Source of the DNA: a virus
Strand: one strand, 5' to 3'
DNA length: 64,000 bases
Virus record (IMG/VR): IMGVR_UViG_3300013723_000002
Below the pieces are notes generated by a model that ran no database searches, was not told the origin of the DNA, and saw nothing but the letters and a program-made list of their open reading frames with translations. How positions within the stretch are numbered: the first letter of the stretch is position 1; the number at the start of each line of letters is the position of its first letter. Below, in pieces: positions 4,585-56,453 of this stretch. Made by a program: the position numbers and the translations under genes.

Positions 4585-4600
4585 TTATTTTTTTTGTTCC
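4585..4600 (-). promoter_or_regulatory. Late box (minus strand GGAACAAAAAAAATAAG) upstream of 3753-4535
   Basis: GGAAC lies 65 nt upstream of ATG 4535. Confidence 0.5.
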
Positions 4601-4636
4601 AGTTCAGGACTACGCTAAAGTTAGATTTATTTTAAA

Positions 4637-4697
4637 TACGGCATTGACGTATATAGATATAAACACTAACATAGCTTTACAAAGTACGGCATTGACG
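4637..4697 (+). promoter_or_regulatory. Two direct 13-bp repeats TACGGCATTGACG (48 bp apart), each supplying a TTGACG -35; tandem promoters/operators of the TA pair
   Basis: 4637-4649 and 4685-4697. TTGACG-17nt-TAACAT and TTGACG-17nt-CAAAAT. Confidence 0.45.
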
Positions 4698-4733
4698 GAC
4701 TTTACTAAAAGGAACAAAATACTTAGGTGCTGT

Positions 4734-5057
4734 ATGACAAATATGAGAACCATAGTCGAAACAGAACCATTTAAGAGGGTTGTGGATGACTATTTCCCCA
4801 AAAGGGAAGACTTTGAAGAGTTAAAAACGTTTCTAGCTCACTTCCCTTTCGCTGGAAATAAGATTCCAAAAGGTGAAGGGACAAGAAAACTAAGATGGCC
4901 AGCAAAGCTTAAAGGTGCTGGAAAATCGGGGGGTTATAGAATTATCTATTTATATGATTCAAATGAAGATGAAGTCTGGCTCTTATCTATTTATGCTAAA
5001 AGTGTTACTGAAAATGTAGATAGTAAGAAATTGAAGGAGCTAAAGAAACATAAGTAA
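4734..5057 (+). CDS. RelE/ParE-superfamily toxin, HigB2-like (toxin-first TA pair)
   Basis: KLRWPAKLKGAGKSGGYRIIYLYDSNEDEVWLLSIYAKSVTENV matches the G-K-S-G-G-[YF]-R-[IV]-I-Y ... LL.IY.K core of COG4737/HigB2-type toxins. ATG 4734 follows AGGTG. The ORF-track start 4644 lies inside the promoter repeats. Confidence 0.7.
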   Translation: MTNMRTIVETEPFKRVVDDYFPKREDFEELKTFLAHFPFAGNKIPKGEGTRKLRWPAKLKGAGKSGGYRIIYLYDSNEDEVWLLSIYAKSVTENVDSKKLKELKKHK

Positions 5058-5182
5058 TCTGGAGGCCTTTAATAACCGAAAGTTTCTTAAAGGCCCCTGA
5101 AATTAATGAAGATAGTATTAGTAATAACTTTTTATTAAACAATCGCGATTCAATAACAGTATTGATTTTATAGGAAATATAT

Positions 5183-5497
5183 ATGAACTACTCTGATTTA
5201 GAGTTGCGGGACCAATCTCGCAATATTGAAGATGAGGTTCAAGCAGGCTTAGCTGAATATAAAGCCCGCCGTAAGGCACGTGTAACACAAGTGCCATTAA
5301 ATGAAGTTAAAGAAGCCCGTGCCAAGGTCGGATTAACTCAAGGGGACTTTGCTGCTTTGATGGGAGTATCTGTAAGAACTCTTCAAGAATGGGAACAAGA
5401 CCGCCGTGAACCCAATAAAGCCGCAAAAACATTAGTAAAAATCGCCTTAGTTCACCCAGAAGTATTGCGTGAAGTTAATGAAACATGCCCAGCATAA
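5183..5497 (+). CDS. HTH (XRE/NadS-COG2944 type) antitoxin, HigA2-like
   Basis: GLTQGDFAALMGVSVRTLQEWEQDRREPNKAAKTLVKI is the typical C-terminal HTH. The N-terminal part is charged and disordered-looking. Sits downstream of the toxin. Confidence 0.75.
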   Translation: MNYSDLELRDQSRNIEDEVQAGLAEYKARRKARVTQVPLNEVKEARAKVGLTQGDFAALMGVSVRTLQEWEQDRREPNKAAKTLVKIALVHPEVLREVNETCPA

Positions 5498-5520
5498 AAA
5501 TATATTTAAAGTTGAAATAG

Positions 5521-5546
5521 AAAAGGGCCACTTGTGGCCCTTTTAT
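5521..5546. terminator. Bidirectional terminator between the antitoxin and the 2184-aa gene
   Basis: AAAAGGGCCACttgtGGCCCTTTTATTT. Confidence 0.7.
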
Positions 5547-5553
5547 TTATTGA

Positions 5554-8500
5554 TTATCTAGCGAGTGATAACTCTGCCAGATCATCAAGCACTTCATAAA
5601 GATTACTTGCAAAGACTTCCGGATCGAGCTGGTGCGGCGTCTTTTTATAGGCTTCAATGATCGCCTCACGGCTTATCCCTTCTGCATTATCGGTCACAAT
5701 CGCTGGGATAAAGTGTTCCTTTACTTTCATGGCCAGCTTGTAACGTTCATAGCCCACAATCAAACGATAATCATGCCCTTCTTTAACAACTACAATTGGC
5801 GTTTTCATCGTTGGCTTTTTCTCTAACCGGACATACTTTTTAAGGTCTACCTTAATTTGGTCTACCCCGATCCGGTCAAACATTCCATCATGCTTCCAAG
5901 AGTCAAAAGCATGGACCAGATTTTCCTGGATCTTCGATACACCCGCTTCTTTTAAAGAGGCCAAAACCGACTTAATATTTCGGGCTGCACATTCCAGACT
6001 ATCCGGATCATTGGTAACTGTATAAACAAAACGATTAGCCAGTAATGCTTCACGGATTGCCGGATCTTGTATACCTATGCCAGATAGAATATGAGTATTA
6101 CGATACGGCGAAAGGATCAGGCCATATTCCAGTAATGCTTCATCCTGACGTAACTTACGTGGATTAAAGCCTAAATGCTCAATCTTCTCGAAAAGCTCTT
6201 CTACACTTGCCACATACGAAAGGTCAATGTTTCGCATGTATGGTGCATCTTCAGGTAAAGCATGGCGCTCTAAAATAATAATGCGCGTACTGACTGAAGT
6301 ATTAGCATTACTAAACGTAGAAGCCGGGAGATTAATGCTGGCCACTGTATAAAACTCTTGGCCTTCTTGTGCCTGCCATTTCTCAAGTCCTTTATCGAGA
6401 TTTGGCGAGTTCGGAACCAGGGCTACAACACGTCCACCTTCCCGCAAATGTGCACAGGCTTTTTTCAAATGCTCAAGCGCTAAAGATCCAGCATGACCAA
6501 ACGGCGGATTCATCACAATGGCATCATATTTGATCATGGTATTGTGTGATTCAAAGCTGCCCATCACCACGTTTGCATTCGGGCTGCTTAGCTGGGCACG
6601 GCTGGCCAGTTCACTTGATGGCTCAATCATGGTTGTATTTGTATCATTCGGGAACCAGCGGCCAATGGCGCCGTCACCTGCAGATGGCTCTAATACATCA
6701 TCACCATTATGGGCACCCGACCATTCAACCATTTTCATGCCCAGCGGTTCAGGCGTGGCGTACCAATCTTTACCGATCTTATTTGCCCGGTTGTCGCGGT
6801 TTTTACCCTTGTTGTAATAATACGTTTTAGCCTTATCAAATGCAGATAGACGGGCTATACGTGCATTCTCTTCATCATAGGCTTTGCCGCCTATCCCGTC
6901 CAAAAGGCTAGGTTCTGAATATTCAGCCGCATTGTACGCACTAATGATTGCGTCCCGGATACTGACCACAGCATCATCACCCTTGGCTAAGTTATCAACC
7001 GTTTCTGCGCGCTGGGCAATCACATTCGCAAAGGCTGAAGTTTCCCATTTTGTACCGGTAGTTAAATAACGCTGGATTGCATTAGAAGCCTGGCCAAAAC
7101 GGTAAATACGGCCTTCAGTCTGGCGTAATTTTGCCGGGCGTTTTGGTAGACCTAAATTGATGATAACGCGCTGGTGTACCCCAGTAGTGTCATGAAAACT
7201 AATACCTGTTGCGCCTGCATCGGACTGGACCATAATTACATCACGGCCACTATTGTCTGTATTGAACAGATCCGCATTCTTGGCGCGTTCAGCCTTGGAA
7301 ACACGGCCGTTAAACAGTAGAACGTCCGGGAAATGTGCCTTAATCATTTGAATAGGTGAAGGGAATTGTAGATCCAGGGCAACCAGATCCGGATGCTCCT
7401 GGGCAAACTGATCATATTCAATTTGTACCTGGTCAGCATTTCGATCTTCTTTAAATTTATTGGTGAATTTAAAAGGACTAAATCCTCCACCCTCATTGTA
7501 ATCATGAAAGACTACGATTTTACGGCCCAGCTGCAGATGCAAGTTAATTTGATCAATTGCAGCATCGGCTTTAATGGCTTCTAACAAACGTTCTTTAGAT
7601 AAGTAATCAAAACGGCTGTTTACTGCACGTGAAAGATTTGAATAGATCCGTTCATCTGCTTCATTTTTACTTTCCCATAGAATATCCAGGCCGCGGTCAA
7701 TCTCTTGGCCAGCAGCAGATTTAATCAAAATAAATTTTCGGTCATAGTCAAAAGGTACATCTAGCTCACGTCCAGACATAGCCCCAGCGGTTTTTAATTT
7801 CTCTGCAAAATTCCGCTCATTTACGCCACTATCAATTTTCCCATCTGGGCGGTTCAGCTTGTTATAGCGCATGGTATAGCCGAAATTCAGCATGAAGAAT
7901 TTAGAACGGTCATTACCTGAATTGTAGCGTAGGCCTTCGCTGGCATGTTCTGACGACCACATTTTGGCCGGTTCGGTGTAATCAAATAAATAGCCTTCGG
8001 CCCATTCGATACTTTTGACATAGCTAAACGGCGTAGCACTTAAAAAGATAACTTTTGTACGGCCGGCTGGCTGTTCACGCCAGTTTTGATGCCAGATCTC
8101 ACGCTCTTCACTACGCTTGGCCATCCATTTATCTGTAGCTTCGCCAGGGATAAAGGGACCATCTGCGAACTGGGTTACAGTAACGTTGCCGTCATCATCT
8201 ACAGAACGCTCTTCACGTGTTTCACGTGGGGGCATTTCCTCAGAAAAATGGTCATCGTACCAATCATAAAAGCCGTCATGGTGCCCAGACAAGGCTCTTA
8301 ATTTGCGTAATGCAGCAGTAACATTACCGTCTTGTGACTGCATAAGGTTATGTGATTCATCAACAACAATCAGATCCCATTTTTTCTTGGCCAAGTTAAT
8401 ATTTTGGGCAAAATTGGCATAGGTTGTGGCCACAATATTGTGTTCTTCCCCGCCGTTGTCTGTAATGCCGTCCAGCTGGTGAATGTCCAGGTTGAGTGGT

Positions 8501-11500
8501 ACACCGCTTTTCACAAAGTCCCGAACAATCTTATCGTTCATGGATACGATTAAAATATTTTTCAGTCCAGCGTTTACAAAGCGCTTAACTGCACCCAGTC
8601 CGGTAAATGTTTTACCGGTACCCGTACCATTGGTAAATAACATGCCATTAGCATTTTTCCCAAAAAGGTGCGTTTCGGCTTTTAATACATCTTCTTGCTG
8701 TTCAGGTGATAGATACGGCAAGGCGGTTTGAATACTGTGTAAATCTCCCCATTCCGTAGCTGTACCTTCAGCTTCTAATTGTAGTAATGCTTTTCCGGTT
8801 AATTCTGCTCGAATTGACTTAGCAAGCTGAACAATTTTTCTATCTCGTTTGCTGCGAGTAGATGATCCTGAGCTGCTAGATATGTTGCTTGTGCTGCTGT
8901 CAGCGGTTGCAAGACCTGTTGAAGTGATACGGCGTTTTCGCTGGCCAGCATGACTGCTATCGCGTCCAGTTCCGCTACCTGCAGCATGTAATTCTGAAAC
9001 GCCAGGATTACTGTTTCCGTTATTCCCTCCGCCGCTAGTTCCTTCGCCTGATTGTCCAGCCATACTTCCAGCTGTTGATCCTCCATCATGAGCACTTGTT
9101 GGGTTTCCTGATCCGTCACGTACTTGGCCAAGGTTGTGCGAATCTGAAGAGGTAGCTGTTGCATTTGTTAAATCTCTTTTTAAGTTAAGTTGAGCTGGCG
9201 TTAATAGATTATCTGGAATTGTGGCCAAATGTTTTAAACGAACATACCAGCCGGATTGATCATAATAGAAAGTAAACGGGTCATACTCTTGAGCTTCGGT
9301 TTTACGTTTTACTAGGTTCGGATCTAGCACGATACCTTCTAACACTTTGCCCTTTTTAGTCGTATAAAGAACAATAGGATTATCCTGGATAAATGCTGGC
9401 TCTACGCCATCGGCCAGTAATGCCGCTGCTGCCAGCTTTAGTGCTTCAATCGGCCGAGCTTGGGCATCTATCGCCTTTAGTGCATCTAGTGGGGTGCTAT
9501 CCGGAGAAAGACCAGGTGAAGAAATCAGAGGAAATTGTTGCATCATTTCCTGATAAACATCTCTTACTTGGCCAGGGTTAATATTTGGCATGGCTGAATC
9601 AAAAGCAGTCCAGGTTTTACTTAATTTAGCCTTGAGCTGCTCAATATTAATTTCATGAAGTGACTCTAAACCTTTCCAGCCAGCTTCGTAATTTGAAAGA
9701 TAAATTTGACGGGCCTCTTCAACATCATCGGCGCCAATAATCAGCTTATGTTCATCAAAAACCTTAGTATCCGGATCAACCTGGTAAATAACGAAAATCT
9801 TATTATTGAGCTTGGTTAAGCCACGTTTAATGAATACGTCTAGTTCATCACCATCAGCACCTTGGGTATTTTCGATAAAACCGTAGTGATGCTGCATAAC
9901 AGACTGCCAGGTATTTCCCTTTTCATCTGTTCCGGATCTGATAGATCCAGCCGGATTTTCGATACTAATATCCAAGCCATATAACTGGATTTTAGCTTTT
10001 GGATAGTTTCCACTTAACTTCTGCTCTTCAGTAGGTTCAGGAATAGCATTTAAAGGCGAAGTGGCGGCGTCATGGGCTATGGTATCGATAGCTGTCACAG
10101 GTGTATCTTCTTGATGTGCTGAGTCAAACATAGCAATTTGTGAGGTATCGCCGTATTGCTCACTGAGTACCGTATTTGCAAATACCAAGGCATCTTTAAT
10201 ACTGACTGGTTCAGGTTCTCCAAACAGGCCAAAGTTTTGGCTATCCGTTGCATTGCGCTCAACAAACTGGGCCATAGCTTTAAAGGCAAGACTGAGTTTC
10301 TTGGCGCTACGTGCGTTTTTTGAGATAAAAACGGCCAGTTCTGCTACGCCTTCAGGTAAATCACCAAATAGGCCTAACTGCTCAACATATTCAGTGACTG
10401 CCTGGTTAGAAAGTTTTGCTTTTTCTATGACATTGGTAGCATCCAGAATTGCATTAATCACCAGGTCATCCAGGGACTTTTCAATACCGTCTACCATCTG
10501 GCTAGACAGATCCTCTAACTGCCCTTTGACTTGGCCAGAAATAGCCTGGGCTTCAATAAATTTTGGTGCTGATAATGACAAGGCATTTAATACATTTTGC
10601 AGATCCGGTTTAGTCTGATCCGCGACCATTTCTAAAAGCCGGTCATCGTTATAGGCTTTACTGAAAATAGCGCACTTAATCCGGTTGACGAGAGCCTGAG
10701 TAGGTTTACCGTCTGTAGTCGTATATTGGGCCGCTTCATGTTCTCCCAGGCTCTTTAAAAAGCCCTGGATAAACTTAATATTACTCGCCGCCATAAAATC
10801 GCCGTCATCACTTGGATTAAACAATTCAAGTAATGCACCGGTAATACGTCCAGCATCGGTTTTGGCGCGTTCTGTAGCACTAGAACTGAGCTTATCATCC
10901 TGATTAGCTTCTACCGCAAATTGAACCCGGTCAACTTCGGTTTTACGCACTCGGACTAATACCGGTTCTTTTAACTGAGCTACTTTTTCAGGATCTACTC
11001 CAAAGTATTCTGCATTCTCTAGGATCCATTCACGGTACTCTTCAGCCTTACCTTGGGAATAAGCCAGTTTAAGGGCGATAGTCCGGCCGTTGCCTGATTC
11101 AACCACTAAATCCTGGCCAATAATTGGTGCACCCGAATCGGCACGGTTGGATCGGCCTAGGCTGTCCGGGTCTAGGTCATTGGCTATATTGTGGATCTGC
11201 TGCTGGCTTGATTGCCGCGAACGGTCACGTGGCTGGATTTCGGCCGGGTAATCTGGATTTGCATTGCCCAAGGCATCATGGGAGGCAATTAGATCCGCCG
11301 CTTCGATGACAGCCAAGTTAGTGTCTAGGCGTGTCCCCTTGGCTGTTTTAACTTTATTCTGGCGTCCTTCTAAGATTAAAGGACTATCTTCAAGATTTTT
11401 TACAGATTCTAAAATCTGAATATTGAATATTGTTTGATCATCGTCTACACTTGAATCATAAAGGGCGGTTCTTTGATCCAAAGTCGATATAGACACTGAT

Positions 11501-12108: not shown

Positions 12109-12158
12109 ATAACACCTGTCATGTATGATCAGATGCAGTCTAAGTTTAAGAAATGGGC

Positions 12159-12175
12159 CTAAATTTTTTTGTTCC
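12159..12175 (-). promoter_or_regulatory. Late box (GGAACAAAAAAATTTAG) upstream of the 2184-aa gene
   Basis: GGAAC lies 67 nt upstream of ATG 12108. Confidence 0.5.
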
Positions 12176-12228
12176 AGCTGTCAAAAGTTGAAAGGCTATA
12201 CTCAAAACTTCATTAAATAAAAATATTT

Positions 12229-12684: not shown

Positions 12685-12752
12685 TTAGATATGTCCAAAC
12701 TAAGGTCTGAATATCTTAGCTTAAATCCACAATTAGAATTCTGTAGATCTAT

Positions 12753-12780
12753 GAAAAAAGGCCCTCAAGGGGCCTTTTTG
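12753..12780 (-). terminator. Intrinsic terminator after 12781-13551
   Basis: Minus strand AGGCCCCttgaGGGCCT followed by TTTTTT. Confidence 0.7.
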
Positions 12781-13551: not shown

Positions 13552-13554
13552 GTC

Positions 13555-16227: not shown

Positions 16228-16278
16228 GCAGAAAAACCTTATTGAACGTATGCCGCAAGATTAATTCTTTTAAAAAAT

Positions 16279-16296
16279 GCTAAATTTTATTGTTCC
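16279..16296 (-). promoter_or_regulatory. Late box (GGAACAATAAAATTTAGC) upstream of the 890-aa gene
   Basis: GGAAC lies 69 nt upstream of ATG 16227. Terminator hairpin immediately upstream. Confidence 0.5.
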
Positions 16297-16327
16297 AAGA
16301 AAATAACAAGGCCCATAAAAGGGCCTG
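16297..16327 (-). terminator. Terminator after 16332-17021, abutting a late box
   Basis: Minus strand AGGCCCttttatGGGCCT followed by a T-rich tract, then GGAACAAT. Confidence 0.6.
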
Positions 16328-16331
16328 AGCA

Positions 16332-18628: not shown

Positions 18629-18679
18629 TAATTTTCACTAATCTGTTCTATTTGACAGCATTTTGAAGCAGCAAAAATA

Positions 18680-18698
18680 GGGTATTTTTTTTAGTTCC
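18680..18698 (-). promoter_or_regulatory. Late box (GGAACTAAAAAAAATACCC) upstream of the portal-like gene
   Basis: GGAAC lies 70 nt upstream of ATG 18628. Terminator hairpin immediately upstream. Confidence 0.5.
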
Positions 18699-18699
18699 A

Positions 18700-18726
18700 G
18701 AAAAAAATAAGGCCCTATTCGGGCCA
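18700..18726 (-). terminator. Terminator abutting the portal late box
   Basis: Minus strand GGCCCgaataGGGCC followed by TTATTTTTTT, then CTGGAAC. Confidence 0.6.
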
Positions 18727-18892
18727 GATTATTTGATTTAAATTATTTTGCTTTATGCAGATCTATCATAAAAATATTCACTTTCAGCAATAAATTATGC
18801 AAAAAAAGCGGATTTTCTTGCAGTTTTTATTAGTTTTTGATGAAGAAAATTGAAAAATAAAAACAGGTGATTTGATCTGTCTTGATTAAAGA

Positions 18893-18920
18893 ATAAAAAG
18901 CGCCTAGAAGGCGCTTTTTA
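18893..18920 (-). terminator. Terminator of the alcohol dehydrogenase gene
   Basis: AAAAAGCGCCtagaaGGCGCTTTTTA (symmetric A/T runs). Confidence 0.7.
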
Positions 18921-18934
18921 TTCTTTAAGTAAAT

Positions 18935-20098
18935 TTACGGCGTTAGAATGACTTTACGACAGTCTTCTTCCTTTTTATCAAAAATACGGTAACCTTCCGC
19001 AGCATCTTCCAGTTTCATGCGATGGGTAATAATCACATCCGGAGACAGATCTCCATTTTCGATATGTTCGAGTAACTGCGGCAAGTATTTATGCACATGG
19101 GTTTGTCCCATTTTAAAAGTTAAACCTTTGTCAAAGGCATCACCAAACAGAAAGCCATGAATTGGACCGGCATAAATCCCAGGTACACTCACCACACCGC
19201 CGCGTCGGACTGCTGCAATACATTGTCTTAGTGCTGAACCACTCGAACCTTCTAATTTCAGGTTGGTCATTACTGTTTCCAGAACACTCCCTTTGGCTTC
19301 GAAACCAACGGCATCAATAACTGCATCAACACCACGATAACCTGCTGTATTTTGAATAATAAATTCAGCTGCATCGACTTCATCAAAGTTGACCGGAATG
19401 ACCCCATAGGTTTGATGAGCAAATTGCAAGCGATAAGGGTGATGGTCGACCATGAAGATCTGTTCGGCACCGAGCATCCGTGCACAAGCGGCAGCCATCA
19501 GACCGACTGGACCAGCACCATAAATTGCCACTGTAGAACCACGGGTGACTTGAGCATTGGTTACTGCCTGCCAGGCTGTTGGCAGAATATCGGTCAGGAA
19601 TAATACTTTTTCATCAGGCAAGGAGCCGGGAACCTTAAACGGTCCGACATTGCCTTTGGGAATCCGCACATATTCGGCCTGACCACCCGGAACACCACCA
19701 AACAGGTGGCTAAAGCCAAACAAGGCCGCTCCTGGTGGAATCTGTTTTTTATTGAGAATTGCACCACGACCCGTATTGGTATTTTCACAGGCAGCCATCA
19801 GTTCATGTTCACAGAAAAAACAGTGACCGCATGCAATGACAAAGGGAATGATCACCCGGTCACCTTTTTTGACTTCTGTCACTGCAGGGCCGACTTCTTC
19901 TACAACTCCCATAAATTCATGGCCGAAAATATCACCGTCTTCAGTGGCCGGGATTTTACCCCGGTATAGATGTAGGTCTGAGCCACAGATGGCAGTGGCT
20001 GTCACCCTTAAAATAACGTCATCTGGTTCCTGAATCACTGGATCTGGAACAGATTCAACTCGTACATCCCGAGCACCATGATAGGTAAGAGCACGCAT
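18935..20098 (-). CDS. Zn-dependent alcohol dehydrogenase (MDR family, glutathione-independent formaldehyde-dehydrogenase-like)
   Basis: ICGSDLH, GHEFMG (catalytic Zn), [15 protein letters not shown] (structural Zn), GAGPVG (NAD fold). GAGAGGAAA RBS and its own terminator at 18893-18920. Confidence 0.9.
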
Positions 20099-20299
20099 GC
20101 GGATTTCCTCTCTAGTTCAACATAAATAGTCTCAAATAAGGCTGCTGATTATTAATAAGCCTTTTTATTAGAGCCTTATAACCTGACCTAGAGCTGTAAA
20201 TTAATGTATGAAATAAGGGAGCCGAGTGTTTAAAAAATAAATTTATATAGTACTTGCGTAATTCACTAAAAAATATGTCAAAAATCGAGTAAATGATTA

Positions 20300-21157: not shown

Positions 21158-21165
21158 TAGTTTTT

Positions 21166-22368: not shown

Positions 22369-22369
22369 A

Positions 22370-23266: not shown

Positions 23267-23275
23267 AATTTTCCC

Positions 23276-23727: not shown

Positions 23728-24357
23728 TTAAAATAAATTCTTAACTGAGTTGGATACGTCTACACCGGTTTTAACCAGATTTAAGAGGTTTTGGGCTTTC
23801 GTCAGCAATTCACTATTTCCTGTGCCTTGGATCTGGATACCACCAGCCACGGCATTAGAAACAATACCTGCAGATGAAGATTGGCCAAAGAACATATAGC
23901 TCATGTTTCCGCTGATAGTCATAATTTGTGACCGGCTTTCTGCATCAACTTCGCCTGGTTCTAAAGTCAAAGCACAATCAGTTAATTCGTGTACTTTGGT
24001 CCAACGATCATAACGTCCATCGTAAACCAGACAGTTTGTAGTGCCGTTATTGGCGGCAAGTAGGTCAGCAAAATCAGACACTATGCCCTTTTCGGTTTCA
24101 ATGATAGTATATGCGCCCTCATAAGAAGTTTTAATAGTGCCAGGAACATGCGCTGCTAGACCACCTGCATAGGCCACTTCTGCCTTATCGTTATTGGTCA
24201 ATATTGGTCGGGGATAGCTTTTAAAAAGTAGTCGTAATTCTGGTGCAATTTCTGGTACCAGCATGGCATTACACTGTAGCATGGGTGCGCCCAGACCTTT
24301 GGCCACTTCATAATCACGGCGTAATTCGGCTGGGGTGGAGTAAAATTTTTGACGCAT
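23728..24357 (-). CDS. Tail-module protein (209 aa), possible tail tube
   Basis: First ORF behind late box 24409-24428, which suggests an abundant product. Size is compatible with tube proteins. Unverified. Confidence 0.45.
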   Translation of the reverse strand: MRQKFYSTPAELRRDYEVAKGLGAPMLQCNAMLVPEIAPELRLLFKSYPRPILTNNDKAEVAYAGGLAAHVPGTIKTSYEGAYTIIETEKGIVSDFADLLAANNGTTNCLVYDGRYDRWTKVHELTDCALTLEPGEVDAESRSQIMTISGNMSYMFFGQSSSAGIVSNAVAGGIQIQGTGNSELLTKAQNLLNLVKTGVDVSNSVKNLF

Positions 24358-24408
24358 GATTGATCTCGGTTAGTTAAATCATGCGTAAAGTGTGAAGGCT
24401 AAAAAAGG

Positions 24409-24428
24409 GGCTAATTTTTTTCGTTCCC
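24409..24428 (-). promoter_or_regulatory. Late box (GGGAACGAAAAAAATTAGCC) upstream of 23728-24357
   Basis: GGAAC lies 70 nt upstream of ATG 24357. Terminator hairpin immediately upstream. Confidence 0.5.
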
Positions 24429-24456
24429 AAAAACAAAAAAGGGCTTAAAGCCCTTT
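24429..24456 (-). terminator. Terminator after the gpI-like gene, abutting a late box
   Basis: Minus strand AAAGGGCTttaAGCCCTTT followed by TTTGTTTTT, then GGGAAC. Confidence 0.65.
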
Positions 24457-27843: not shown

Positions 27844-27894
27844 TTTCGGTATTTCCGTAACTAGGTTTTGGCCTATTTTGAAGTTGTAGAAAGA

Positions 27895-27914
27895 CTCTAA
27901 TTTTTATTGTTCCC
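27895..27914 (-). promoter_or_regulatory. Late box (GGGAACAATAAAAATTAGAG) upstream of 27214-27843
   Basis: GGAAC lies 70 nt upstream of ATG 27843. Terminator hairpin immediately upstream. Confidence 0.5.
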
Positions 27915-27943
27915 AAAAAAAAGTCCTGGCTTGCAGGACTTTT
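27915..27943 (-). terminator. Terminator after the 376-aa gene, abutting a late box
   Basis: Minus strand GTCCTGCaagcCAGGAC followed by TTTTTTTT, then GGGAAC. Confidence 0.7.
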
Positions 27944-27954
27944 CTGAAGAGAAG

Positions 27955-29085: not shown

Positions 29086-29133
29086 GGATCTATACCACTA
29101 TTTGAAAAGTGATATTTTGCAGCCTGGCCAAAA

Positions 29134-29152
29134 TGCTTTTTTTTATTGTTCC
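29134..29152 (-). promoter_or_regulatory. Late box (GGAACAATAAAAAAAAGCA) upstream of the 376-aa gene
   Basis: GGAAC lies 67 nt upstream of ATG 29085. Terminator hairpin immediately upstream. Confidence 0.5.
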
Positions 29153-29155
29153 AAG

Positions 29156-29188
29156 ATAAAAAAATACTGCCCGGAGGCAGTATTTTTT
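29156..29188 (-). terminator. Terminator after 29208-30029, abutting a late box
   Basis: Minus strand TACTGCCtccgGGCAGTA followed by TTTTTTTATCTT, then GGAAC. Confidence 0.7.
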
Positions 29189-29207
29189 AAACTATAGAAT
29201 AGAGCGA

Positions 29208-32115: not shown

Positions 32116-33921
32116 TTATTTTTTGATTAAAGAGGCAGGCAGATTAACTACTTCGATTACTACAATTTGATCAGCGAAGCGTTCAAGCGGGTTAAGTTCT
32201 GCTGCAACACGGGTCTGTGCAGTTACACCCTGTTCAAAGTCAACCGTGTTCGATTCACGTATTGTTAAAGGCCGTGCTACAAAGCCGGTGAATGCGTTAC
32301 GAACAGGTATTGTGCTGCGACCAATAACCATGATTTCTGCTGCATCGTCATGTTCATCAAGCAAGTTGGCAGAAGTCGGAACGTGATACACATTCGTGCC
32401 GCCAGGGAATGAACCGATACGGGTAATCTGGTTAGGGGCACCTACAGAAACGCCCGCTTTTTTGTAATGTGTGTCGTCAGCTAACTGGTCAAATAACACA
32501 GCCATTGTGTCACCAATGTAAATGTCATGGCCAGACGGCACTACATCAAGCAGCTTGTTAATATCCAGTTTTGCCGCACTAATCGTTACCGTTAGTTCGC
32601 GGGCTAAATCAGAGGTATTGTTGAATGCTGCTGCATCAGTTACGCCACGTCCCAGATCTGCAACAAGTACACGCTTAAAGCCTTTTGCACGACGTTTACC
32701 ACGGCGTAGCAACCGGATATTAGACTCAAGCAGCTGTTTAGAGGCTACGATTGCGGTAAATGCACCACGCGGATCTAAGCCGAGTTCATTTTGTGCCTGG
32801 CTGATTGCATCATCAGTTGCACGATATAGAGCACGAATTGAATAGGCATGAAGAGAACGGGCTTTTAACACCATATCGACGCCTGGTGCGTCTAGCACTG
32901 GGGCTTTACCATTTTTACGTTCAAAGTCAGCAATCAGGTTCACTGATACTTCTGTACCTGCTGGCAGTTCTTCAGCGAAGGTTACTGTAATCTCGCCTTT
33001 ATCCAGATCAGCTTCACCAGATTGCAATTTGACTTTAATGCCGTCCAGTACCAGGCCATGGTCATTTAAGCCAATAATTGTACTTAGACCTGAAAATTTC
33101 GCATGATCAGTTGTTGCATCATGGCCGACTTCCACACCATTAACCATGACACGTACACGGCCACCAATAAACGGTAATACCGGCTGATTTGGGTCAGGCA
33201 AATGGCTGATATTGTCTTTATAGGCAATTGTTGGTTTCAGGGTATAAATACGAGGATTAGCGTCATCCTGGGTTGCCTGGAATTCAAATTGTGAATCGAA
33301 ATACTGGCAGGTTGCGGCCGGTCCATCGATAAAGTCATTTGCTTTAGTTTCCCCCCAGGTTGTATTGGCCACAGTACGTGCATACACCAGTGGTAAAGCA
33401 TTAGAGCCGGTCGGATTCGGCAAATACGCTACGATTGGCAAAGCATTAGCGATTTGCGTTGAAATGGTGACAATCGCTTGTGTTGGAATGACAGCAAGCG
33501 CTTCATGTCCCCCTGCACTTAACTGAGTGCCGATTGCCCCGGCAGAGTCAAATTCTGCTTTAATGGCTTGTAGACCAGAGGAAAGAGCAGCTGCAACCAT
33601 GTCAGCGCGCGGTGCTTCGCCATCATGACGATCTTTATAGCCCTTAATTCCTGTTTCAATGGCGGACAAAAGATATTCACGATTTTCCGGAACAACACTG
33701 TCAAACATTGCCACTAAGCTAGCTGGGATGGCTTCAGGTAAACTTTGATTTACTTCTGCAGTAGCATGAACACTGTCATAAGCCTGAATTACTTGCACAC
33801 CCTCATTACGGCGCGCTTCAAAACTTTTTAAAAAATTCGCGGTCGCTTGGATCTCGGCAGTTTGCAGAGAATGTTGGTCACGCTGTTCTTTATTTAATTG
33901 ATCACTCATGGATTGCCTCAT
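32116..33921 (-). CDS. Putative major capsid protein (601 aa, N-terminal helical extension, Ig-like insertion)
   Basis: Headed by late box 33971-33990 (GGAAC-equivalent lies 69 nt from ATG 33921). Followed by hairpin 32085-32108 (attenuator-like). Fold assignment unverified. Confidence 0.45.
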   Translation of the reverse strand: MRQSMSDQLNKEQRDQHSLQTAEIQATANFLKSFEARRNEGVQVIQAYDSVHATAEVNQSLPEAIPASLVAMFDSVVPENREYLLSAIETGIKGYKDRHDGEAPRADMVAAALSSGLQAIKAEFDSAGAIGTQLSAGGHEALAVIPTQAIVTISTQIANALPIVAYLPNPTGSNALPLVYARTVANTTWGETKANDFIDGPAATCQYFDSQFEFQATQDDANPRIYTLKPTIAYKDNISHLPDPNQPVLPFIGGRVRVMVNGVEVGHDATTDHAKFSGLSTIIGLNDHGLVLDGIKVKLQSGEADLDKGEITVTFAEELPAGTEVSVNLIADFERKNGKAPVLDAPGVDMVLKARSLHAYSIRALYRATDDAISQAQNELGLDPRGAFTAIVASKQLLESNIRLLRRGKRRAKGFKRVLVADLGRGVTDAAAFNNTSDLARELTVTISAAKLDINKLLDVVPSGHDIYIGDTMAVLFDQLADDTHYKKAGVSVGAPNQITRIGSFPGGTNVYHVPTSANLLDEHDDAAEIMVIGRSTIPVRNAFTGFVARPLTIRESNTVDFEQGVTAQTRVAAELNPLERFADQIVVIEVVNLPASLIKK

Positions 33922-33970
33922 AAGCCCTTACGGGCTGGTTTAGATGAGGCAATTGTGCAAGCACAAAAAA

Positions 33971-33990
33971 GGGCTAAATTTTTTTGTTCG
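33971..33990 (-). promoter_or_regulatory. Late box variant (CGAACAAAAAAATTTAGCCC) upstream of the capsid candidate
   Basis: Box lies 69 nt upstream of ATG 33921. Confidence 0.5.
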
Positions 33991-35883: not shown

Positions 35884-37539
35884 TTATTCAGCATAAAGCT
35901 CTTTAGCGGTCTGAACACCGTGAGTATTAATACATGCAACAACAACGGCTTGGCCAGCAGCTAAATTGCGTCCTAGGGCTACGCTGTATGGGCCACTTAC
36001 CTGTTGTTCGATGGTGCTGTTGTCATCCAGGATAATCCGCAATAAACAGTCTGGATCTGTTATCCCTTCTAAGACACTATTTTCAGAAGTCAGAAAAGCT
36101 GTAAATTTTTGGATTTCAGTGAATGTCAAAGTCTTTAATGCTCCATTATGGCCAATTGTTACCAGCTCGCCTGGATTTAGTGCGGTATCCAAGGCTAATT
36201 TCCATTCGTAATCTATAACCTGGACTGTTTTGGCATCTTGGCCAGGTAAAGTAATCGTTACTTCTGGTCCATTCGCTGTACCAAATACACTTAATCCATC
36301 ATTGGCCAGATAGCCTTCAAACGGCATAATATAAGTTGCTTCTAAAGACTCACGTATTGTTGAAACTTTAACTATTTCGCCTGGTACCAATGCAGTTGGT
36401 AAGGTGTACTGCCAATCTCCATTTGAGTCTGGGAAGGTACTAGATGACGCGCCGTTTATTTCAATATGAACCTCAAGATCTGGGCGGGCTTTACCTGCTA
36501 AATGTCGGTTATCCAAGATTTGAAAAGAAAGGGGATAGCTAGGTGCACTTTGGCCCGTATATGTGACTTTTGCAGCATCTACCGTATTAATTAATATTGT
36601 GACCACTTCGTTATGCTGTAGACCGTATGGCAATGCAATAGTCCAGTTGCCGGTTAAATCTGCAACATCAGAAAGTATGTTATTACTGTCTGTCACAATA
36701 CTGACTTGAGCGTGTGGCTCAGGTGCGGTACCTGACACAAAATAGCCCGCTTCATCCAAAAGATAGCTGAATTTAAAACAGGTCAGTTCTTTAGCTTCAC
36801 TTCGTTCTTCAGTATTTGCGATATAGACCTGAATCTTATCCCCGTGAATAAATTCTTCTTCAGACGTCCAAGACCAGGATAAATCTGGACCAGGTTGAGC
36901 GGTAACATTCCCCAGGCGTGAAGTGATATATACCTTGGCGCGGCTATCTTCTACCATACCTGAAACTGTCTTATTGTCTTGGCCCAAAATGGCCGTAAAA
37001 TCTTTATCTAGCTGCACATACGGCGCGGCCTTCTCAACGTTGATAATGACCATATCTTGTGGCTTGGTGCCTATAAAGATAATGATATTGTTTGTACCAA
37101 CTTGAAGGTTATTTTCATCTAGTGAATATTGCCAGTTGCCCAGTTCATCTGGCTCAGCGTTTGTATTTGTACCATCTTCAAACACAATCCGAACCACGGA
37201 TTTTAACGGCGCTGTGCCGCGTAATATCATCGTTTCAACATCATAAGCCGCAGCAAATGTAATATTGTCGGTATCGGTTGCCTGGTTAGTGTTGGTAAAT
37301 TTAAATACGTTCTGGCCAACCAGATTATTAGCCAGGTTTAATGAACGGCGGATAGAGTCTGCATTAATATCGCCGCTCACTTGAATATCGTATTCAGCGC
37401 CTATTGGCAGATTAATTTCATTAACAGCAGATAAAATAATTTCACCGCCTTCAGTGAAAACGGTTTCATTGCGTACTGTCTGGACTGTACTGGTAATCTC
37501 AGTTGAAACGGTATGCTTCAACGTTTGATCTTGGTTCAT
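35884..37539 (-). CDS. Ig-like/beta-sandwich repeat protein (551 aa), surface decoration or fibre-associated
   Basis: About five to six repeated ~85-aa modules with recurring G(T/N)A.P...V.I......(D/G).(G/L)(N/D)W motifs. Headed by late box 37588-37607. Confidence 0.55.
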   Translation of the reverse strand: MNQDQTLKHTVSTEITSTVQTVRNETVFTEGGEIILSAVNEINLPIGAEYDIQVSGDINADSIRRSLNLANNLVGQNVFKFTNTNQATDTDNITFAAAYDVETMILRGTAPLKSVVRIVFEDGTNTNAEPDELGNWQYSLDENNLQVGTNNIIIFIGTKPQDMVIINVEKAAPYVQLDKDFTAILGQDNKTVSGMVEDSRAKVYITSRLGNVTAQPGPDLSWSWTSEEEFIHGDKIQVYIANTEERSEAKELTCFKFSYLLDEAGYFVSGTAPEPHAQVSIVTDSNNILSDVADLTGNWTIALPYGLQHNEVVTILINTVDAAKVTYTGQSAPSYPLSFQILDNRHLAGKARPDLEVHIEINGASSSTFPDSNGDWQYTLPTALVPGEIVKVSTIRESLEATYIMPFEGYLANDGLSVFGTANGPEVTITLPGQDAKTVQVIDYEWKLALDTALNPGELVTIGHNGALKTLTFTEIQKFTAFLTSENSVLEGITDPDCLLRIILDDNSTIEQQVSGPYSVALGRNLAAGQAVVVACINTHGVQTAKELYAE

Positions 37540-37587
37540 AGCGTTATCTCACTCTAAAGATAACGCTATTTTGTCTGCTCCTGAAAA

Positions 37588-37607
37588 GTGCTTATTTTAT
37601 TGTTCCC
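37588..37607 (-). promoter_or_regulatory. Late box (GGGAACAATAAAATAAGCAC) upstream of the Ig-repeat gene
   Basis: GGAAC lies 67 nt upstream of ATG 37539. Confidence 0.5.
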
Positions 37608-39664: not shown

Positions 39665-39738
39665 AATAAAAAAAGGTTCCAGAATTACTTTCATTATGGG
39701 AAAGTTCCTGGAACCCAATTTTTTTTATTACCAGATTA

Positions 39739-41814: not shown

Positions 41815-41863
41815 AAGAAAGCCCATCATTAGAATGGGCTTATTATTGGCTGGCCAGAATATT

Positions 41864-41880
41864 GCCTAATTTTTTGTTCG
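41864..41880 (-). promoter_or_regulatory. Late box variant (CGAACAAAAAATTAGGC) upstream of tail fibre 1
   Basis: Starts right after the terminase stop. Lies 66 nt upstream of ATG 41814. Confidence 0.45.
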
Positions 41881-43464: not shown

Positions 43465-43513
43465 TAAAAAAGACCTACAACCACGTGGCTGTAAGTCTAT
43501 GGGCAGAAAAAAT

Positions 43514-43532
43514 AGCTAAATTTTTTTGTTCC
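43514..43532 (-). promoter_or_regulatory. Late box (GGAACAAAAAAATTTAGCT) upstream of the large terminase
   Basis: GGAAC lies 68 nt upstream of ATG 43464. Confidence 0.5.
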
Positions 43533-43540
43533 AGACTCCT

Positions 43541-44948: not shown

Positions 44949-44951
44949 GGT

Positions 44952-45821: not shown

Positions 45822-45872
45822 GGGATTGCCTTAAAAATAATGCTCAGGCTTATTCTGCTATGGTTAAAAACG

Positions 45873-45891
45873 GCGCTTTTTTATTGTTCCC
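45873..45891 (-). promoter_or_regulatory. Late box (GGGAACAATAAAAAAGCGC) upstream of 44952-45821
   Basis: GGAAC lies 69 nt upstream of ATG 45821. Confidence 0.5.
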
Positions 45892-45943
45892 ATAAATGAA
45901 AAGGCTAGCATTTAAGCCAGCCTTTCACGTTTTAATAGTTAGG

Positions 45944-53963: not shown

Positions 53964-54034
53964 TGAGCGCTTTCCTCATTACCAAATATTGTTATATACG
54001 GTTCGGGGAACCCCGAACATTTCCGGCCTTTATT

Positions 54035-54110
54035 GGCTTGCCTATAATTTTATAGTCTATTTTTATAATTTAATAGGTTTATTTCACTATTCACCTATAT
54101 TTTTATAGGT
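54035..54110 (-). promoter_or_regulatory. Second copy of the operator/promoter block, upstream of early operon 2
   Basis: GGCTTGCCTATAATTTTATAGTCT (54035-54058) matches GGCTTGCCTATAGTTTTATAGTTT (62236-62259) at 22/24 positions. Further TAATAGGTTTA/TTATAGGTTTA repeats extend to 54113. Confidence 0.5.
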
Positions 54111-54166
54111 TTAATAAGATAAAGCTAGGATATTCCTAGCTTTATTTTTTTCGATTTGTCTATTGT

Positions 54167-56383
54167 TTATACAAGAGTGGTTTTCATACCTAGACCGCCA
54201 GTTAAAGCATGAGCTAAGGATCTGTCTTGAACATTCTGGCTAACTTTTTGTGGCTGACTACTCACTGCTACTTGCTTTTGCTGAGGTGCACTATTTTGTT
54301 TTTTCAGCATAGGTGGCACTACGGGCACTTTAAAAGGATTGGCCAGCGGTGCGCCTGTAGCCTGCGGTGCTTTTTGGCTGGTGGCTTTTGCACTTGGGCT
54401 AACCTTTTGTGCCTGTTTCGGCTTAGCGGCTGGTGCAGTTTGGCCAGTCGTTTGTGTGGTCGCCGTTTGTCCTGGTTTCCATTCCTTGGTTGCAGGTTTA
54501 AGTACAGTGACTTTCCCAGGCTTAATGCTTCCCTCCTGGCGTTCGATGGCAGCCATAATTTTGGCCCGTTCTGCTGGCGTATATTCTGACATACGCTTAT
54601 TACTACCTACGGCCGACAACACGGCGCGCTGGTAGGCTGCTGTGTTATTTTCATGCGGCGGCGCATATTTATAAATAGCATCATTTAGAGTCAGGTTTTT
54701 ATAATTTTTACCAGAAAAAATAAGATTCTCTTTTGCCTTCCTTCCCGCTTCAATCGTTGGAAAAGCTGCAAAGCGTTTAGAACCCTTATCCCCGGTTGTA
54801 CTATCTAAACTTAAATGGCCTTGGCTTTTTGTGAAATTACCCCGTTCAATATTACCTACATTTCGGTTACGCCAGTTCCAGTTACCCTGTTGTTTTATGA
54901 CTGAGCCATCTGCCAGTTCTACAATGTTATAACCCTTGCCTGCTTCCAGGACTTTAGTAATGGGGATTTCATTTTTAGGATTATAGGTAGACGGCGTGGC
55001 ACTACCGCCATCACTATAGCCCCCGCCAGATCCGCCGTAGGCTGGTGAGCCATCTGCATACTGGCGGTACTGTGGCAAAAGTACCCCTGCCCCTGTCTTA
55101 TAGCCTGCCAATGTAGCCAAAGAAGGGGAGGTCATCAGACCTTTCCAGCTATCCTGGGTATATTTATTAATACCGTCCAGTGTTTTATTCCAGCTACCAA
55201 TAATCTGACCCCCTAAATCCTGCTGTTGTAAACCTGCTGTCCAGCCTCCTACCTTCTCACCAATGGTTGCGCCGATAGTCGCGCCAGCAATACTACCTAC
55301 TGGGCCAAGTAAGGACCCGACTAATCCACCTGCAGTACCACCAATTAATCCACCTACACCGGAGGCCTTCTGTTCCTTATTTAGATTTCCCCATTCAGAT
55401 GCCAGTAAGCCGCCACCTACCAGTAAACCGATACCAGGGATCTTTCTGGTTAATTTAGTGAGTACGCCACCTTTACCCCGTCCACGGGTATTGTCTGTAG
55501 GTACTGGAATAACTGGACCATTGCGGCCCCCTCCCCCACCACCACGGCGGCTATTTTTAGCCCCTCCCCTACCTAAATTACTTAATAAACCAGCACCGGC
55601 CAGCAGCTTACCCAATAAGCTATTTTGATCCCGGTTCAATGCCTCTAGCATTTTTCTTAAAATACGCCGTTGTTCAGTCTGGTGCCGCTCTACCTGTGTG
55701 TAGTGCTCTGCCTGTTCAGTCGGTAACTGTTCATCCTTTTTAGGCTTAGCACGGCGATATAGCCATAAAGCGCCCCTGCCCATACTTTTAAATGCGCGGC
55801 CAGCTGGACTAACAATAGTATTTAATTCATGAAGTGCATCCAGTGTTGGATCTACGCCAGTTGTATCTGCATTTAAGCCTAAATTAGATCCATTTATCCC
55901 CTTACGGATACTATCTAAAAAACTCTTATCGTTTACGCCTGGTGCCCGACTAACAAAACGCCCAGCTGCATCCCTGGTTGCATTGATTGGATCATTAGAG
56001 ATAGTGGTAGATCTTGTTGGGGGATTAACTTCATGTTGGCCAGTCTGACGGGTACCGCCGCTATTACGTGTTATCTGCTTGCCCTGCCCGCCAGCACTTA
56101 CCACTGGATCTAATTTGGTAGTAGACCGGGTAACACTTCGACCATCTGTATTTACTGTCACTTTAACTGTTGGCCGGATCTGTCCAATCTTGCCAATTTT
56201 TTTTTCAATCCGGGCTACTTGGTTATAGCCGCGATTACTTTCTTCAGATCGCCGTACTAATAGGTTTTTTAAAATATTCAGGATCTCTGTTGTGTCTGTA
56301 TTGACACTACTAACCCCTTGCTGAAGCTCTTTCATGCGCCGTTCCCCTATGAGAAAGCCGGCACTGTCAAATTGAAGTTGCAT
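54167..56383 (-). CDS. Gly-rich membrane-spanning virion protein (738 aa), tape-measure-like or ejection protein with C-terminal NNPGNIR-type domain
   Basis: Headed by late box 56434-56453. N-terminal coiled coil, then basic Gly-rich tracts (RGGGGGGRNG), then a GxxxG-rich hydrophobic block (GLLVGGGLLA...GGLIGGTAGGLVGSLLGPVGSIAGATIGATIG). C-terminal RNRNVGNIE...FAAFPTIEAGR...YAPPHENNTAAY. Confidence 0.5.
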   Translation of the reverse strand: MQLQFDSAGFLIGERRMKELQQGVSSVNTDTTEILNILKNLLVRRSEESNRGYNQVARIEKKIGKIGQIRPTVKVTVNTDGRSVTRSTTKLDPVVSAGGQGKQITRNSGGTRQTGQHEVNPPTRSTTISNDPINATRDAAGRFVSRAPGVNDKSFLDSIRKGINGSNLGLNADTTGVDPTLDALHELNTIVSPAGRAFKSMGRGALWLYRRAKPKKDEQLPTEQAEHYTQVERHQTEQRRILRKMLEALNRDQNSLLGKLLAGAGLLSNLGRGGAKNSRRGGGGGGRNGPVIPVPTDNTRGRGKGGVLTKLTRKIPGIGLLVGGGLLASEWGNLNKEQKASGVGGLIGGTAGGLVGSLLGPVGSIAGATIGATIGEKVGGWTAGLQQQDLGGQIIGSWNKTLDGINKYTQDSWKGLMTSPSLATLAGYKTGAGVLLPQYRQYADGSPAYGGSGGGYSDGGSATPSTYNPKNEIPITKVLEAGKGYNIVELADGSVIKQQGNWNWRNRNVGNIERGNFTKSQGHLSLDSTTGDKGSKRFAAFPTIEAGRKAKENLIFSGKNYKNLTLNDAIYKYAPPHENNTAAYQRAVLSAVGSNKRMSEYTPAERAKIMAAIERQEGSIKPGKVTVLKPATKEWKPGQTATTQTTGQTAPAAKPKQAQKVSPSAKATSQKAPQATGAPLANPFKVPVVPPMLKKQNSAPQQKQVAVSSQPQKVSQNVQDRSLAHALTGGLGMKTTLV

Positions 56384-56433
56384 TACTTAAAACCTGTGCT
56401 ATTTATCCTGGTAAATGTTGGCACGGCGTATGA

Positions 56434-56453
56434 GAGCGATTTTTAATTGTTCC
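56434..56453 (-). promoter_or_regulatory. Late box (GGAACAATTAAAAATCGCTC) upstream of the 738-aa gene, inside the early arm
   Basis: GGAAC lies 70 nt upstream of ATG 56383, directly after the T-run of terminator 56458-56490. Confidence 0.5.

Follow-up and report, generated by a model that had tools for sequence, protein, structure and literature searches.

Recurrent GGAAC boxes as candidate activator-dependent late promoters in a temperate Acinetobacter myovirus prophage

The IMG/VR virus record IMGVR_UViG_3300013723_000002 provides a 64-kb stretch of DNA (the window, analysed over its whole length of 64,000 nucleotides; G+C content 41.6%), nearly all of which is a temperate myovirus prophage read from the minus strand. 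Its genes run from a repressor and Cro through an early operon to the terminase, capsid, sheath, fibre and baseplate genes (Table 1), and copies of a box made up of GGAAC, an A-tract and (T)TAG(C) precede late genes. These boxes are the subject of this report. The relatives of the phage are Acinetobacter elements, including a prophage of A. chengduensis (L001; capsid identity 55%), an element of A. pittii (L202), phage vB_AbaM_ABMM1 (hereafter ABMM1; capsid identity 35.7%) and two further relatives that are more distant than ABMM1 (L005 and L007). The ABMM1-like set comprises at least 76 prophage contigs in IMG/VR. A megablast search of the late region against GenBank phages gave no match, and neither did Rfam and tRNA scans across the window. 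Judged from their placement, anatomy and conservation, the boxes are probably the upstream halves of activator-dependent, -35-less late promoters of sigma70 type.

An earlier note on this DNA had listed 14 boxes and read them as a phage-specific late promoter or activator site, set in terminator-promoter cassettes. All 14 were recovered at their coordinates, every one on the minus strand. The core motif GGAACWAWAAAA, with at most one mismatch, has 18 matches in the window against 3.4 +/- 1.9 in dinucleotide shuffles (maximum 8). Similarly, the composite pattern GGAAC-N28/29-nAnA[ACT]T has 15 minus-strand matches and none on the opposite strand, compared with 3.6 +/- 1.8 over both strands of the shuffles. 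When a position weight matrix (PWM) is derived from the 14 sites, they score 25-50 bits, while the next match reaches 17 and the 99.9th percentile lies at -13; the scores of the 14 sites themselves are circular, because these sites are the training set. The leading pentamer is (G/C)GAAC at 14/14 window sites and GGAAC in the relatives. Among the matches listed in a scan of IMG/VR with GGAACAAWAAAAWTTAG, those in unrelated contigs were single and evidently due to chance. Full-text searches of the literature returned no description of the motif, and promoters go unmentioned in the published account of ABMM1.

The boxes are tied to gene starts. With the first G of GGAAC numbered as position 1, the A of the ATG falls at box position 66-71 in 13 of the 14 units, so that the fixed spacing claimed earlier is upheld with the capsid gene as its exception. 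Here an ATG at +70 competes with one at +82 (window position 33909); the latter has a GAGG Shine-Dalgarno (SD) sequence, and the homology alignment begins at residue 9. Because homology and the SD sequence agree, the capsid gene probably starts at ATG 33909 and not at 33921. The start codons chosen previously at 41814 and 46465 do obey the rule, and the former also agrees with the N-terminus of its ortholog.

Upstream gaps of 35 nt or more number 19 in the late region, and 15 of these contain a box (14 canonical and one degenerate), compared with 1 of 13 in the early arm. As had been noted, boxes are absent before the alcohol dehydrogenase (ADH), insertion sequence (IS) and toxin-antitoxin (TA) genes and the island, and the same holds for a lipoprotein-like gene. 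The 738-aa gene had been taken for a boxed exception within the early arm. This does not hold: it is a late virion-type gene, syntenic in the relatives and boxed there too, and its ABMM1 homolog is annotated as "tail tip lysozyme". Two candidates were missing from the earlier list. The first is a degenerate box at 39712-39731, where GTAAT stands for GGAAC, the hexamer at 34-39 is CATAAT and an ATG lies at +68. The tail-fibre-like open reading frame (ORF) listed from TTG 39718 most likely starts at this ATG (39664), which is preferred because of its distance from the degenerate box and its agreement with the ortholog. The second is a perfect GGAACAAAAAAA box inside a gene (52170-52189), which lies 324 nt upstream of the next gene start, has no start codon at the usual distance and has no counterpart that we could find in L202. 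Whether it is an internal promoter or a chance match is uncertain.

Information content along the aligned sites peaks at T-GGAAC (positions 0-5), the A-tract (6-13), G17/C18, a T-block (22-24) and a hexamer at 34-39. The -10-like hexamer described earlier is thus real, although it is better registered as YAnAMT at box positions 34-39 (35-40 in two sites). When 21 sites from the window and its L001 orthologs are anchored on the hexamer, A-11 and T-7 are present in 21/21, A-9 in 20/21 and A or C at -8 in 20/21. The hexamer is followed by a 6-nt GC-rich discriminator, then by a pyrimidine at -1 (18/21), a purine at +1 (18/21; A in 15) and T or A at +2 (20/21). This register bears the marks of a sigma70-family holoenzyme that recognises a -10 and selects its start site. 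From the pyrimidine-purine pattern we infer a start at box position 46 and a leader of 20-25 nt; GGAAC would then, and only then, lie at -45 to -41.

A conventional -35 element is lacking. A scan for TTGACA-N16-18-TATAAT returned none of the boxes, and their -35 window is taken up by the A-tract, positions 11-16 being A/T. The box contains no inverted repeat and is asymmetric. Because a -10 and start register is present and a -35 is absent, the box is read as an activator site at about -45 to -28. Other readings of the same letters were rejected by eye: for sigma54 the GG-to-GC offset is 16 rather than 12, TTTAGC taken as a -35 would leave a spacer of merely 15 nt, and the TG of an extended -10 is absent at -15/-14.

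Conservation follows this layout. In ten orthologous promoter pairs between the window and L001 or L202, identity forms a two-block footprint, with 0.92 over GGAAC, 0.79 over the A-tract, 0.77 over the -10 and 0.70 at +1/+2, compared with 0.29-0.52 in the flanks, spacer, discriminator and leader. ABMM1 has units composed of T-GGAAC-(C/T), N29, a CAAAAT-type hexamer and a pyrimidine-purine start, and these precede its capsid, sheath, tube, holin, baseplate and "tail tip lysozyme" genes as well as other late genes; the composite pattern has 14 matches on its coding strand and one on the other (expected 4.2). Since the A-tract is not kept in ABMM1, the family-wide features are GGAAC and the spacing. 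In orthologous promoters of the 76 ABMM1-type prophages, conservation covers box positions 1-21 and 33-50, and variation falls in 24-32, as expected for a spacer. Further, L005 and L007 carry GGAAC-N28/29 and a -10 ahead of late genes. In phages from four lineages the box is conserved at orthologous gene starts. The association with strand and gene starts, the footprint and the ABMM1 architecture together support the earlier proposal of a phage-specific late promoter or activator site in terminator-promoter cassettes.

The fusion of boxes to terminators is likewise real, and its count rises from six to seven, with a GC hairpin and T-run directly before the boxes at 56.45, 45.89, 29.15, 27.9, 24.4, 18.7 and 16.3 kb. 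The other half have no such terminator. The leaders are structured too: 7 of the 14 fold far better than shuffled sequences (z <= -2.3), and four of these hairpins are kept in the relatives, with 8 compensatory pairs among them. The 5' arms span box positions 38-49, from the end of the -10 across the discriminator to the predicted +1, and the 3' arms cover the SD sequence or the start codon. The terminase leader is an exception, as its 3' arm precedes a U6 run and forms an intrinsic terminator. Hairpins tend to be stronger where the box lacks an upstream terminator (one-sided Mann-Whitney p ~0.055-0.07), which is suggestive. The computed accessibility of the SD sequence and AUG rises from 0.38 in read-through RNA to 0.52 in RNA starting at 46 (p = 1e-4), although longer RNAs pair more anyway.

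The factor that would read the box was sought among the phage proteins. None of the early or large proteins of the window matched sigma factor, RNA polymerase, Mor/C, Ogr/Delta or Q families, in agreement with the earlier note, which had recognised no sigma factor or RNA polymerase gene. That note had named two trans-factors, a 228-aa helix-turn-helix (HTH) protein and a 60-aa Zn-ribbon protein. The former is backed by phyletic co-occurrence, being present in L202, L005 and L007, all of which bear boxes; the latter has no homolog in L202, ABMM1, L005 or L007. The only non-virion proteins in common with ABMM1 are the 228-aa HTH protein, a 292-aa protein and part of the Cro-like HTH, the 738-aa protein being also common to both but of late virion type. 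The 292-aa protein recurs in L202, L005 and ABMM1. The genes of the pair overlap or abut in the window, L202 and L005, and they sit at the end of the early operon, past the resolvase genes (the "Q position"), with the first boxed late gene following directly downstream; the nuclease gene that precedes them in ABMM1 and L202 is of RusA or VRR-NUC type. At its N-terminus the 292-aa protein has a three-helix (HTH-like) bundle that is modelled with confidence, followed by long helices or coiled coil and an acidic tail, and an exhaustive hidden Markov model search extended its family to 92 clusters with no annotation. Because only these two proteins co-occur with the box, the 228-aa XRE-type HTH protein is most likely the best candidate for a box-binding late activator, with the 292-aa protein as its candidate partner.

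Taken together, the proposed mechanism is as follows. The core promoter would be a sigma70-type -10, (C/T)AnA(A/C)T, at box 34-39, followed by the 6-nt GC-rich discriminator, a pyrimidine-purine start at about 46 and a 20-25 nt leader with an SD sequence. T-GGAAC (about -45 to -41), the A-tract and (T)TAG(C), to about -28, would form the binding site of a phage activator that replaces the -35 and, once bound, recruits host RNA polymerase in a class-II-type arrangement. This activator is likely the 228-aa protein, probably together with the translationally coupled 292-aa protein, and two different HTHs would suit an asymmetric, non-palindromic site. Units would be insulated by two routes. In seven of them, the intrinsic terminator abutting the box would block transcription from upstream. 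In others, a hairpin with its 5' arm in the discriminator and start region, and its 3' arm over the SD sequence or start codon or before a U-run, would form only in read-through RNA, as RNA initiated at 46 could not make it. Such insulation would explain why stronger hairpins tend to occur where no terminator precedes the box; we treat it as a hypothesis, since the accessibility calculation backs it only in part.

Several observations weigh against this mechanism. The -12 position is mostly C rather than T. The SD/AUG accessibility of RNA starting at 46 does not differ significantly from that of RNA starting at 35 (0.52 vs 0.47, p = 0.23). The leader hairpins begin at 38-44, and if they act as 5'-terminal stabilisers, transcription would start at or before ~40, which clashes with a -10 at 34-39. 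The AlphaFold models of the two candidate regulators are of low confidence (pLDDT 58 and 56), and profile searches of both against PDB, Pfam and NCBIfam returned a generic XRE HTH and coiled-coil noise only; beyond that HTH, no similarity of either protein to a characterised activator was detected. L007 has the box and the HTH protein, yet no 292-aa homolog was detected within 10 kb. Public RNA runs yield contigs that continue across the boxes, or come from uninduced lysogens at too low a depth: Logan contigs from runs with the window phage or ABMM1-type prophages are flat or pass through the boxes, the prophage is absent from 7 of 8 raw-read A. baumannii RNA runs (2026), and two runs from a prophage-bearing study (X69 and X70), at a depth of 3-40x, have no 5' pile-up at the capsid promoter.

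A more far-reaching proposal, which we put forward tentatively and consider doubtful, is that the 228-aa and 292-aa proteins constitute an undescribed two-protein late activator, or a replacement for sigma region 4, acting on the asymmetric GGAAC...TTAG site (-45 to -28). The pair would redirect the host sigma70 polymerase to 14-16 -35-less promoters, and the coupling of these with promoters inside terminators and with anti-SD hairpins would mean that each late gene relies on its own promoter alone and is never expressed by read-through. If true, insulation would operate genome-wide and in modules, a scheme that has not been described in temperate phages.

Another reading has the boxes served by a different initiation machinery, for instance a sigma-appropriation complex, a cryptic sigma-like factor of the phage or an RNA polymerase that escaped recognition. 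This machinery would use GGAAC as a -35-like element, start at A35 or just past the hexamer at about 40 and produce late mRNAs with the hairpins as 5'-terminal stem-loops. GGAAC is indeed the classical -35 of extracytoplasmic function (ECF) sigma factors, as the earlier note pointed out; sigmaE spacing (16-17 nt to the -10 and 6 nt from there to +1) would place the start on the invariant, pyrimidine-preceded A35, and the window lineage has a T-rich block at 21-25, where an ECF -10 would fall. Numerically, that lineage accommodates an ECF-like reading with a -10 at 22-27. The main argument for a start at or before position 40 comes from the hairpins, which begin at 38-44 and are kept by compensatory changes, so that some RNA must include these positions. 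On the other hand, the early and large proteins include no sigma70-family member, RNA polymerase or known sigma-like family, and ABMM1-type promoters vary at 24-32 and have no T-block, so the ECF resemblance fails on spacing as well as for want of a sigma gene. If fully transcribed, the terminase leader hairpin with its U6 would terminate its own transcript, and strong hairpins on the SD sequence and AUG of the capsid mRNA would hamper translation. The host ECF sigma factor SigAb of Acinetobacter was rejected as a reader of the box, as it recognises GTCAAC/CGTT, and its authors set it apart from RpoE-like ECF sigma factors (PMC12153292). Because the ECF-like reading fails in the ABMM1 lineage, host sigma70 polymerase with a phage activator is favoured, and we consider a separate machinery unlikely.

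It is less likely again that late transcription proceeds mainly by Q-like antitermination from a promoter at 56731-56702, with the boxes as auxiliary sites for pausing, reloading or boosting. This promoter (TTTACA-18-TATAAT; 11/12 matches) is followed by a ~95-nt structured RNA and a 16-bp terminator, the unit (56731-56600) closely follows the candidate regulator genes and precedes the first late gene, and the many intrinsic terminators between late genes would need read-through. Yet no Q-family or other antiterminator family was detected, and the sequence of the unit is not kept in L202, ABMM1 or L005. Every box has its own -10 and start signature and keeps a fixed distance to a start codon, features that would be superfluous in an auxiliary site, and boxes also stand at divergent junctions without upstream late transcription (46532, 4600). 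Least probable of all, to the point of being very hard to sustain, is that the box is a repressor or operator site or a generic host repeat, such as a repetitive extragenic palindromic (REP) or terminator-associated element, rather than a positive promoter element. Half of the boxes do adjoin terminators, and A/T-rich tracts beside hairpins are common in host intergenic repeats; the other half have no terminator, however, and the site is asymmetric, stands a fixed 28 nt upstream of the -10 in promoters without a -35, is absent from the cargo genes (ADH, IS, TA, island) and from the plus strand, and is conserved at orthologous gene starts in four phage lineages.

Activator-dependent late promoters, which we prefer as the reading of the boxes, have several known counterparts. 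The Mor/C promoters of phage Mu have a recognisable -10, no functional -35 and an activator site near -43.5, and are read by host sigma70 polymerase; the Mu activator gene sits at the end of the preceding temporal class. The window phage is similar in having several late promoters with a -10, no -35 and a predicted activator site in the -35 region. A Mor-family dimer binds Mor/C sites, which have dyad symmetry, whereas the window site is asymmetric and no Mor-family protein was detected; Mu has 4-5 such promoters, whereas the window phage has 14-16, about half of them fused to terminators. The late promoters of P2, 186 and P4 depend on the zinc-finger activators Ogr, B and Delta, and the P2 site is TGT-N12-ACA at about -55. 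As in the proposed scheme, one phage protein of a temperate myovirus switches on a small number of late promoters that lack a -35. Unlike the P2 activator, the 60-aa Zn-ribbon gives no Ogr_Delta match and is absent from the box-bearing relatives, and a TGT-N12-ACA dyad was not evident in the aligned upstream flanks, for which no dedicated scan was run. ECF promoters of the sigmaE type (GGAACTT-N16-TCAAA) resemble the boxes in their GGAAC upstream element, and their geometry would set +1 on an invariant A; they differ in that no -10 is conserved 16-17 nt further on across the lineages, the TATAAT-like hexamer is 28 nt away and there is no sigma gene.

The leader hairpins recall phage T4, in which upstream transcripts of genes e, soc and I-TevI hide the ribosome-binding site in a hairpin and the late promoter starts inside that hairpin, which leaves its own transcripts translatable. 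T4 late promoters (TATAAATA) are read with gp55, and at MotA/AsiA middle promoters a MotA box, TGCTTtA, at -30 replaces the -35. As in T4, hairpins of the window pair with the SD sequence or AUG. In the window they are evolutionarily kept, and the predicted +1 (position 46) falls within their 5' arms (38-49). The promoters themselves are unrelated, the arrangement in the window is deduced from sequence and covariation, and one of its hairpins is a terminator rather than a trap for the ribosome-binding site. Phage lambda has one late promoter (PR') with Q and 6S RNA, and its terminators are read through. As in lambda, the regulator genes end the early rightward operon after recombination and resolvase genes, and a strong, seemingly constitutive promoter with a short terminated RNA lies just downstream; unlike in lambda, each late unit has its own promoter signature (14-15 cassettes), and no Q-like protein was found.

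The short RNA unit itself (56600-56731, minus strand) lies between the early-operon terminator and the first late box. Its ~95-nt RNA has a minimum free energy of -39.6 kcal/mol (z = -3.7) and no Rfam match. The arrangement is similar to PR'/6S RNA/tR' of lambda; alternatively, the unit may encode a small regulatory RNA. In L202 the gap at 11470-11736 likewise holds a promoter, a short structured RNA and a terminator.

Other features of the window touch on the late units. The 2184-aa and 890-aa proteins, each with its own late box, resemble as a pair the anti-restriction virion proteins DarA/DarB of phage P1; they are DarB-like polyvalent and DarA_N proteins rather than polymerases. An ADH-like gene and an IS element (18935-21079) lie between two late units without a box. 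No other part of the prophage is as strongly represented in RNA run X74 as the ADH gene (contig depth 94-145), and for this reason it behaves as a moron expressed in the lysogen. Two inserts are read from the plus strand: one at 46601-49219 encodes an HNH_5 endonuclease-domain protein (426 aa) and a 283-aa protein, and the other at 4644-5497 encodes a RelE-like/MqsA-HTH TA pair. Late boxes border both inserts and point away from them. In other isolates with the prophage, sequences diverge abruptly over 28828-29164, which takes in the promoter box of the 376-aa gene along with the gene's 5' end; given contig break points at 28828 and 29164, mosaic junctions coincide with the terminator-box cassette. 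In the tail-fibre unit (41835..41880) the box begins at the stop codon of the terminase gene. The A. pittii relative (L202/L203) has a plasmid-type Rep3_N replication gene (783-2324) beside its repressor, and therefore may be a phage-plasmid; it also has an intein (Hom_end_hint) within its large terminase gene (19356-20861).

Table 1. Features of the window. Positions are those of the whole stretch; -10 hexamers and transcription start sites are predicted, and orthologous units are given as relative:position.
Feature	Position	Strand	Details
Late unit 1, before 738-aa virion/lysozyme-like gene	56407..56453	-	Box 56434-56453; -10 AACATT 56414-56419; ATG 56383; start site ~56407; ortholog L202:12371
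Intragenic candidate in DUF6283 gene	52143..52189	-	GGAACAAAAAAATAAGCAGC with AATAAT at 35-40; PWM score 17
Late unit (CGAAC variant), before 173-aa gene	46486..46532	-	-10 GAGAAT 46493-46498; ATG 46465
Late unit before 289-aa gene	45845..45890	-	-10 CAGAAT 45852-45857; ATG 45821; orthologs L202:16930, L005:20129
Late unit before large terminase gene	43487..43532	-	-10 TAGACT 43494-43499; ATG 43464; ortholog L202:19287
Late unit (CGAAC variant), before tail-fibre gene	41835..41880	-	-10 AATAAT 41842-41847; ATG 41814; ortholog L001:1657
Degenerate 15th unit	39686..39731	-	GTAAT, A-tract; -10 CATAAT 39693-39698; ATG 39664; canonical ortholog L001:3783
Late unit before 551-aa gene	37561..37606	-	-10 CAAAAT 37568-37573; ATG 37539; ortholog L001:5884
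Late unit (CGAAC variant), before major capsid gene	33945..33990	-	-10 CACAAT 33952-33957; probable ATG 33909; ortholog L001:9914
Late unit before 376-aa gene	29107..29152	-	-10 CAAAAT 29114-29119; ATG 29085
Late unit before 209-aa gene	27868..27913	-	-10 CAAAAT 27875-27880; ATG 27843; ortholog L001:14650
Late unit before 209-aa gene	24382..24427	-	-10 CACACT 24389-24394; ATG 24357; ortholog L001:18109
Late unit before 535-aa gene	18653..18698	-	-10 CAAAAT 18660-18665; ATG 18628; ortholog L001:21293
Late unit before 890-aa DarA_N-domain gene	16251..16296	-	-10 TAATCT 16258-16263; ATG 16227
Late unit before 2184-aa polyvalent (DarB-like) gene	12130..12175	-	-10 TAGACT 12137-12142; ATG 12108
Late unit before 260-aa gene	4555..4600	-	-10 TACACT 4562-4567; ATG 4535
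Intrinsic terminator (hairpin + T8)	56458..56498	-	Upstream of box 56453
Intrinsic terminator, new seventh	45896..45928	-	Upstream of box 45890
Intrinsic terminator	29154..29193	-	Upstream of box 29152
Intrinsic terminator	27917..27945	-	Upstream of box 27913
Intrinsic terminator	24439..24455	-	Upstream of box 24427
Intrinsic terminator, bidirectional-looking	18705..18734	-	Upstream of box 18698
Intrinsic terminator	16309..16326	-	Upstream of box 16296
Terminase leader hairpin + U6, terminator-like	43465..43498	-	5' arm over -10 and predicted start site; 2 compensatory pairs, L202
Leader hairpin of 551-aa gene	37538..37569	-	From end of -10 into start codon; 3 compensatory pairs vs L001
Capsid leader hairpin	33912..33953	-	Outer stem pairs discriminator with GAGG SD region; 2 compensatory pairs vs L001
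Leader hairpin	24354..24384	-	Start codon pairs with CAT in discriminator/start-site region; 1 compensatory pair vs L001
cI-like repressor	62414-63076	+	
Cro-like protein	61792-62196		
228-aa XRE-type HTH protein	58169..58855	-	End of early rightward operon, last conserved gene pair
292-aa protein	57294..58172	-	Start overlaps HTH gene stop by 4 nt
890-aa protein	13555-16227	-	DarA_N domain
2184-aa "large polyvalent protein"	5554-12108	-	LPD3, ddrB-ParB, InPase, SNF2-type helicase and methyltransferase domains

Activator-dependent late promoters are already well known, and no concept is overturned here. If the reading of the boxes as such promoters is correct, they are the late-transcription signal of a widespread group of temperate Acinetobacter myoviruses, which comprises the ABMM1-like contigs of IMG/VR and vB_AbaM_ABMM1, a phage studied for therapy. 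The box rule can be used for annotating transcription units and true start codons, and three starts have been corrected in this way. Further, an uncharacterised protein pair would be the late switch of these phages, which would offer a handle for locking prophages in or out of lytic growth and could be used for tight off/on expression cassettes in Acinetobacter. The cassette of terminator, box, -10 and leader, together with the promoters embedded in hairpins, would then be a clear natural case of modular transcriptional and translational insulation.

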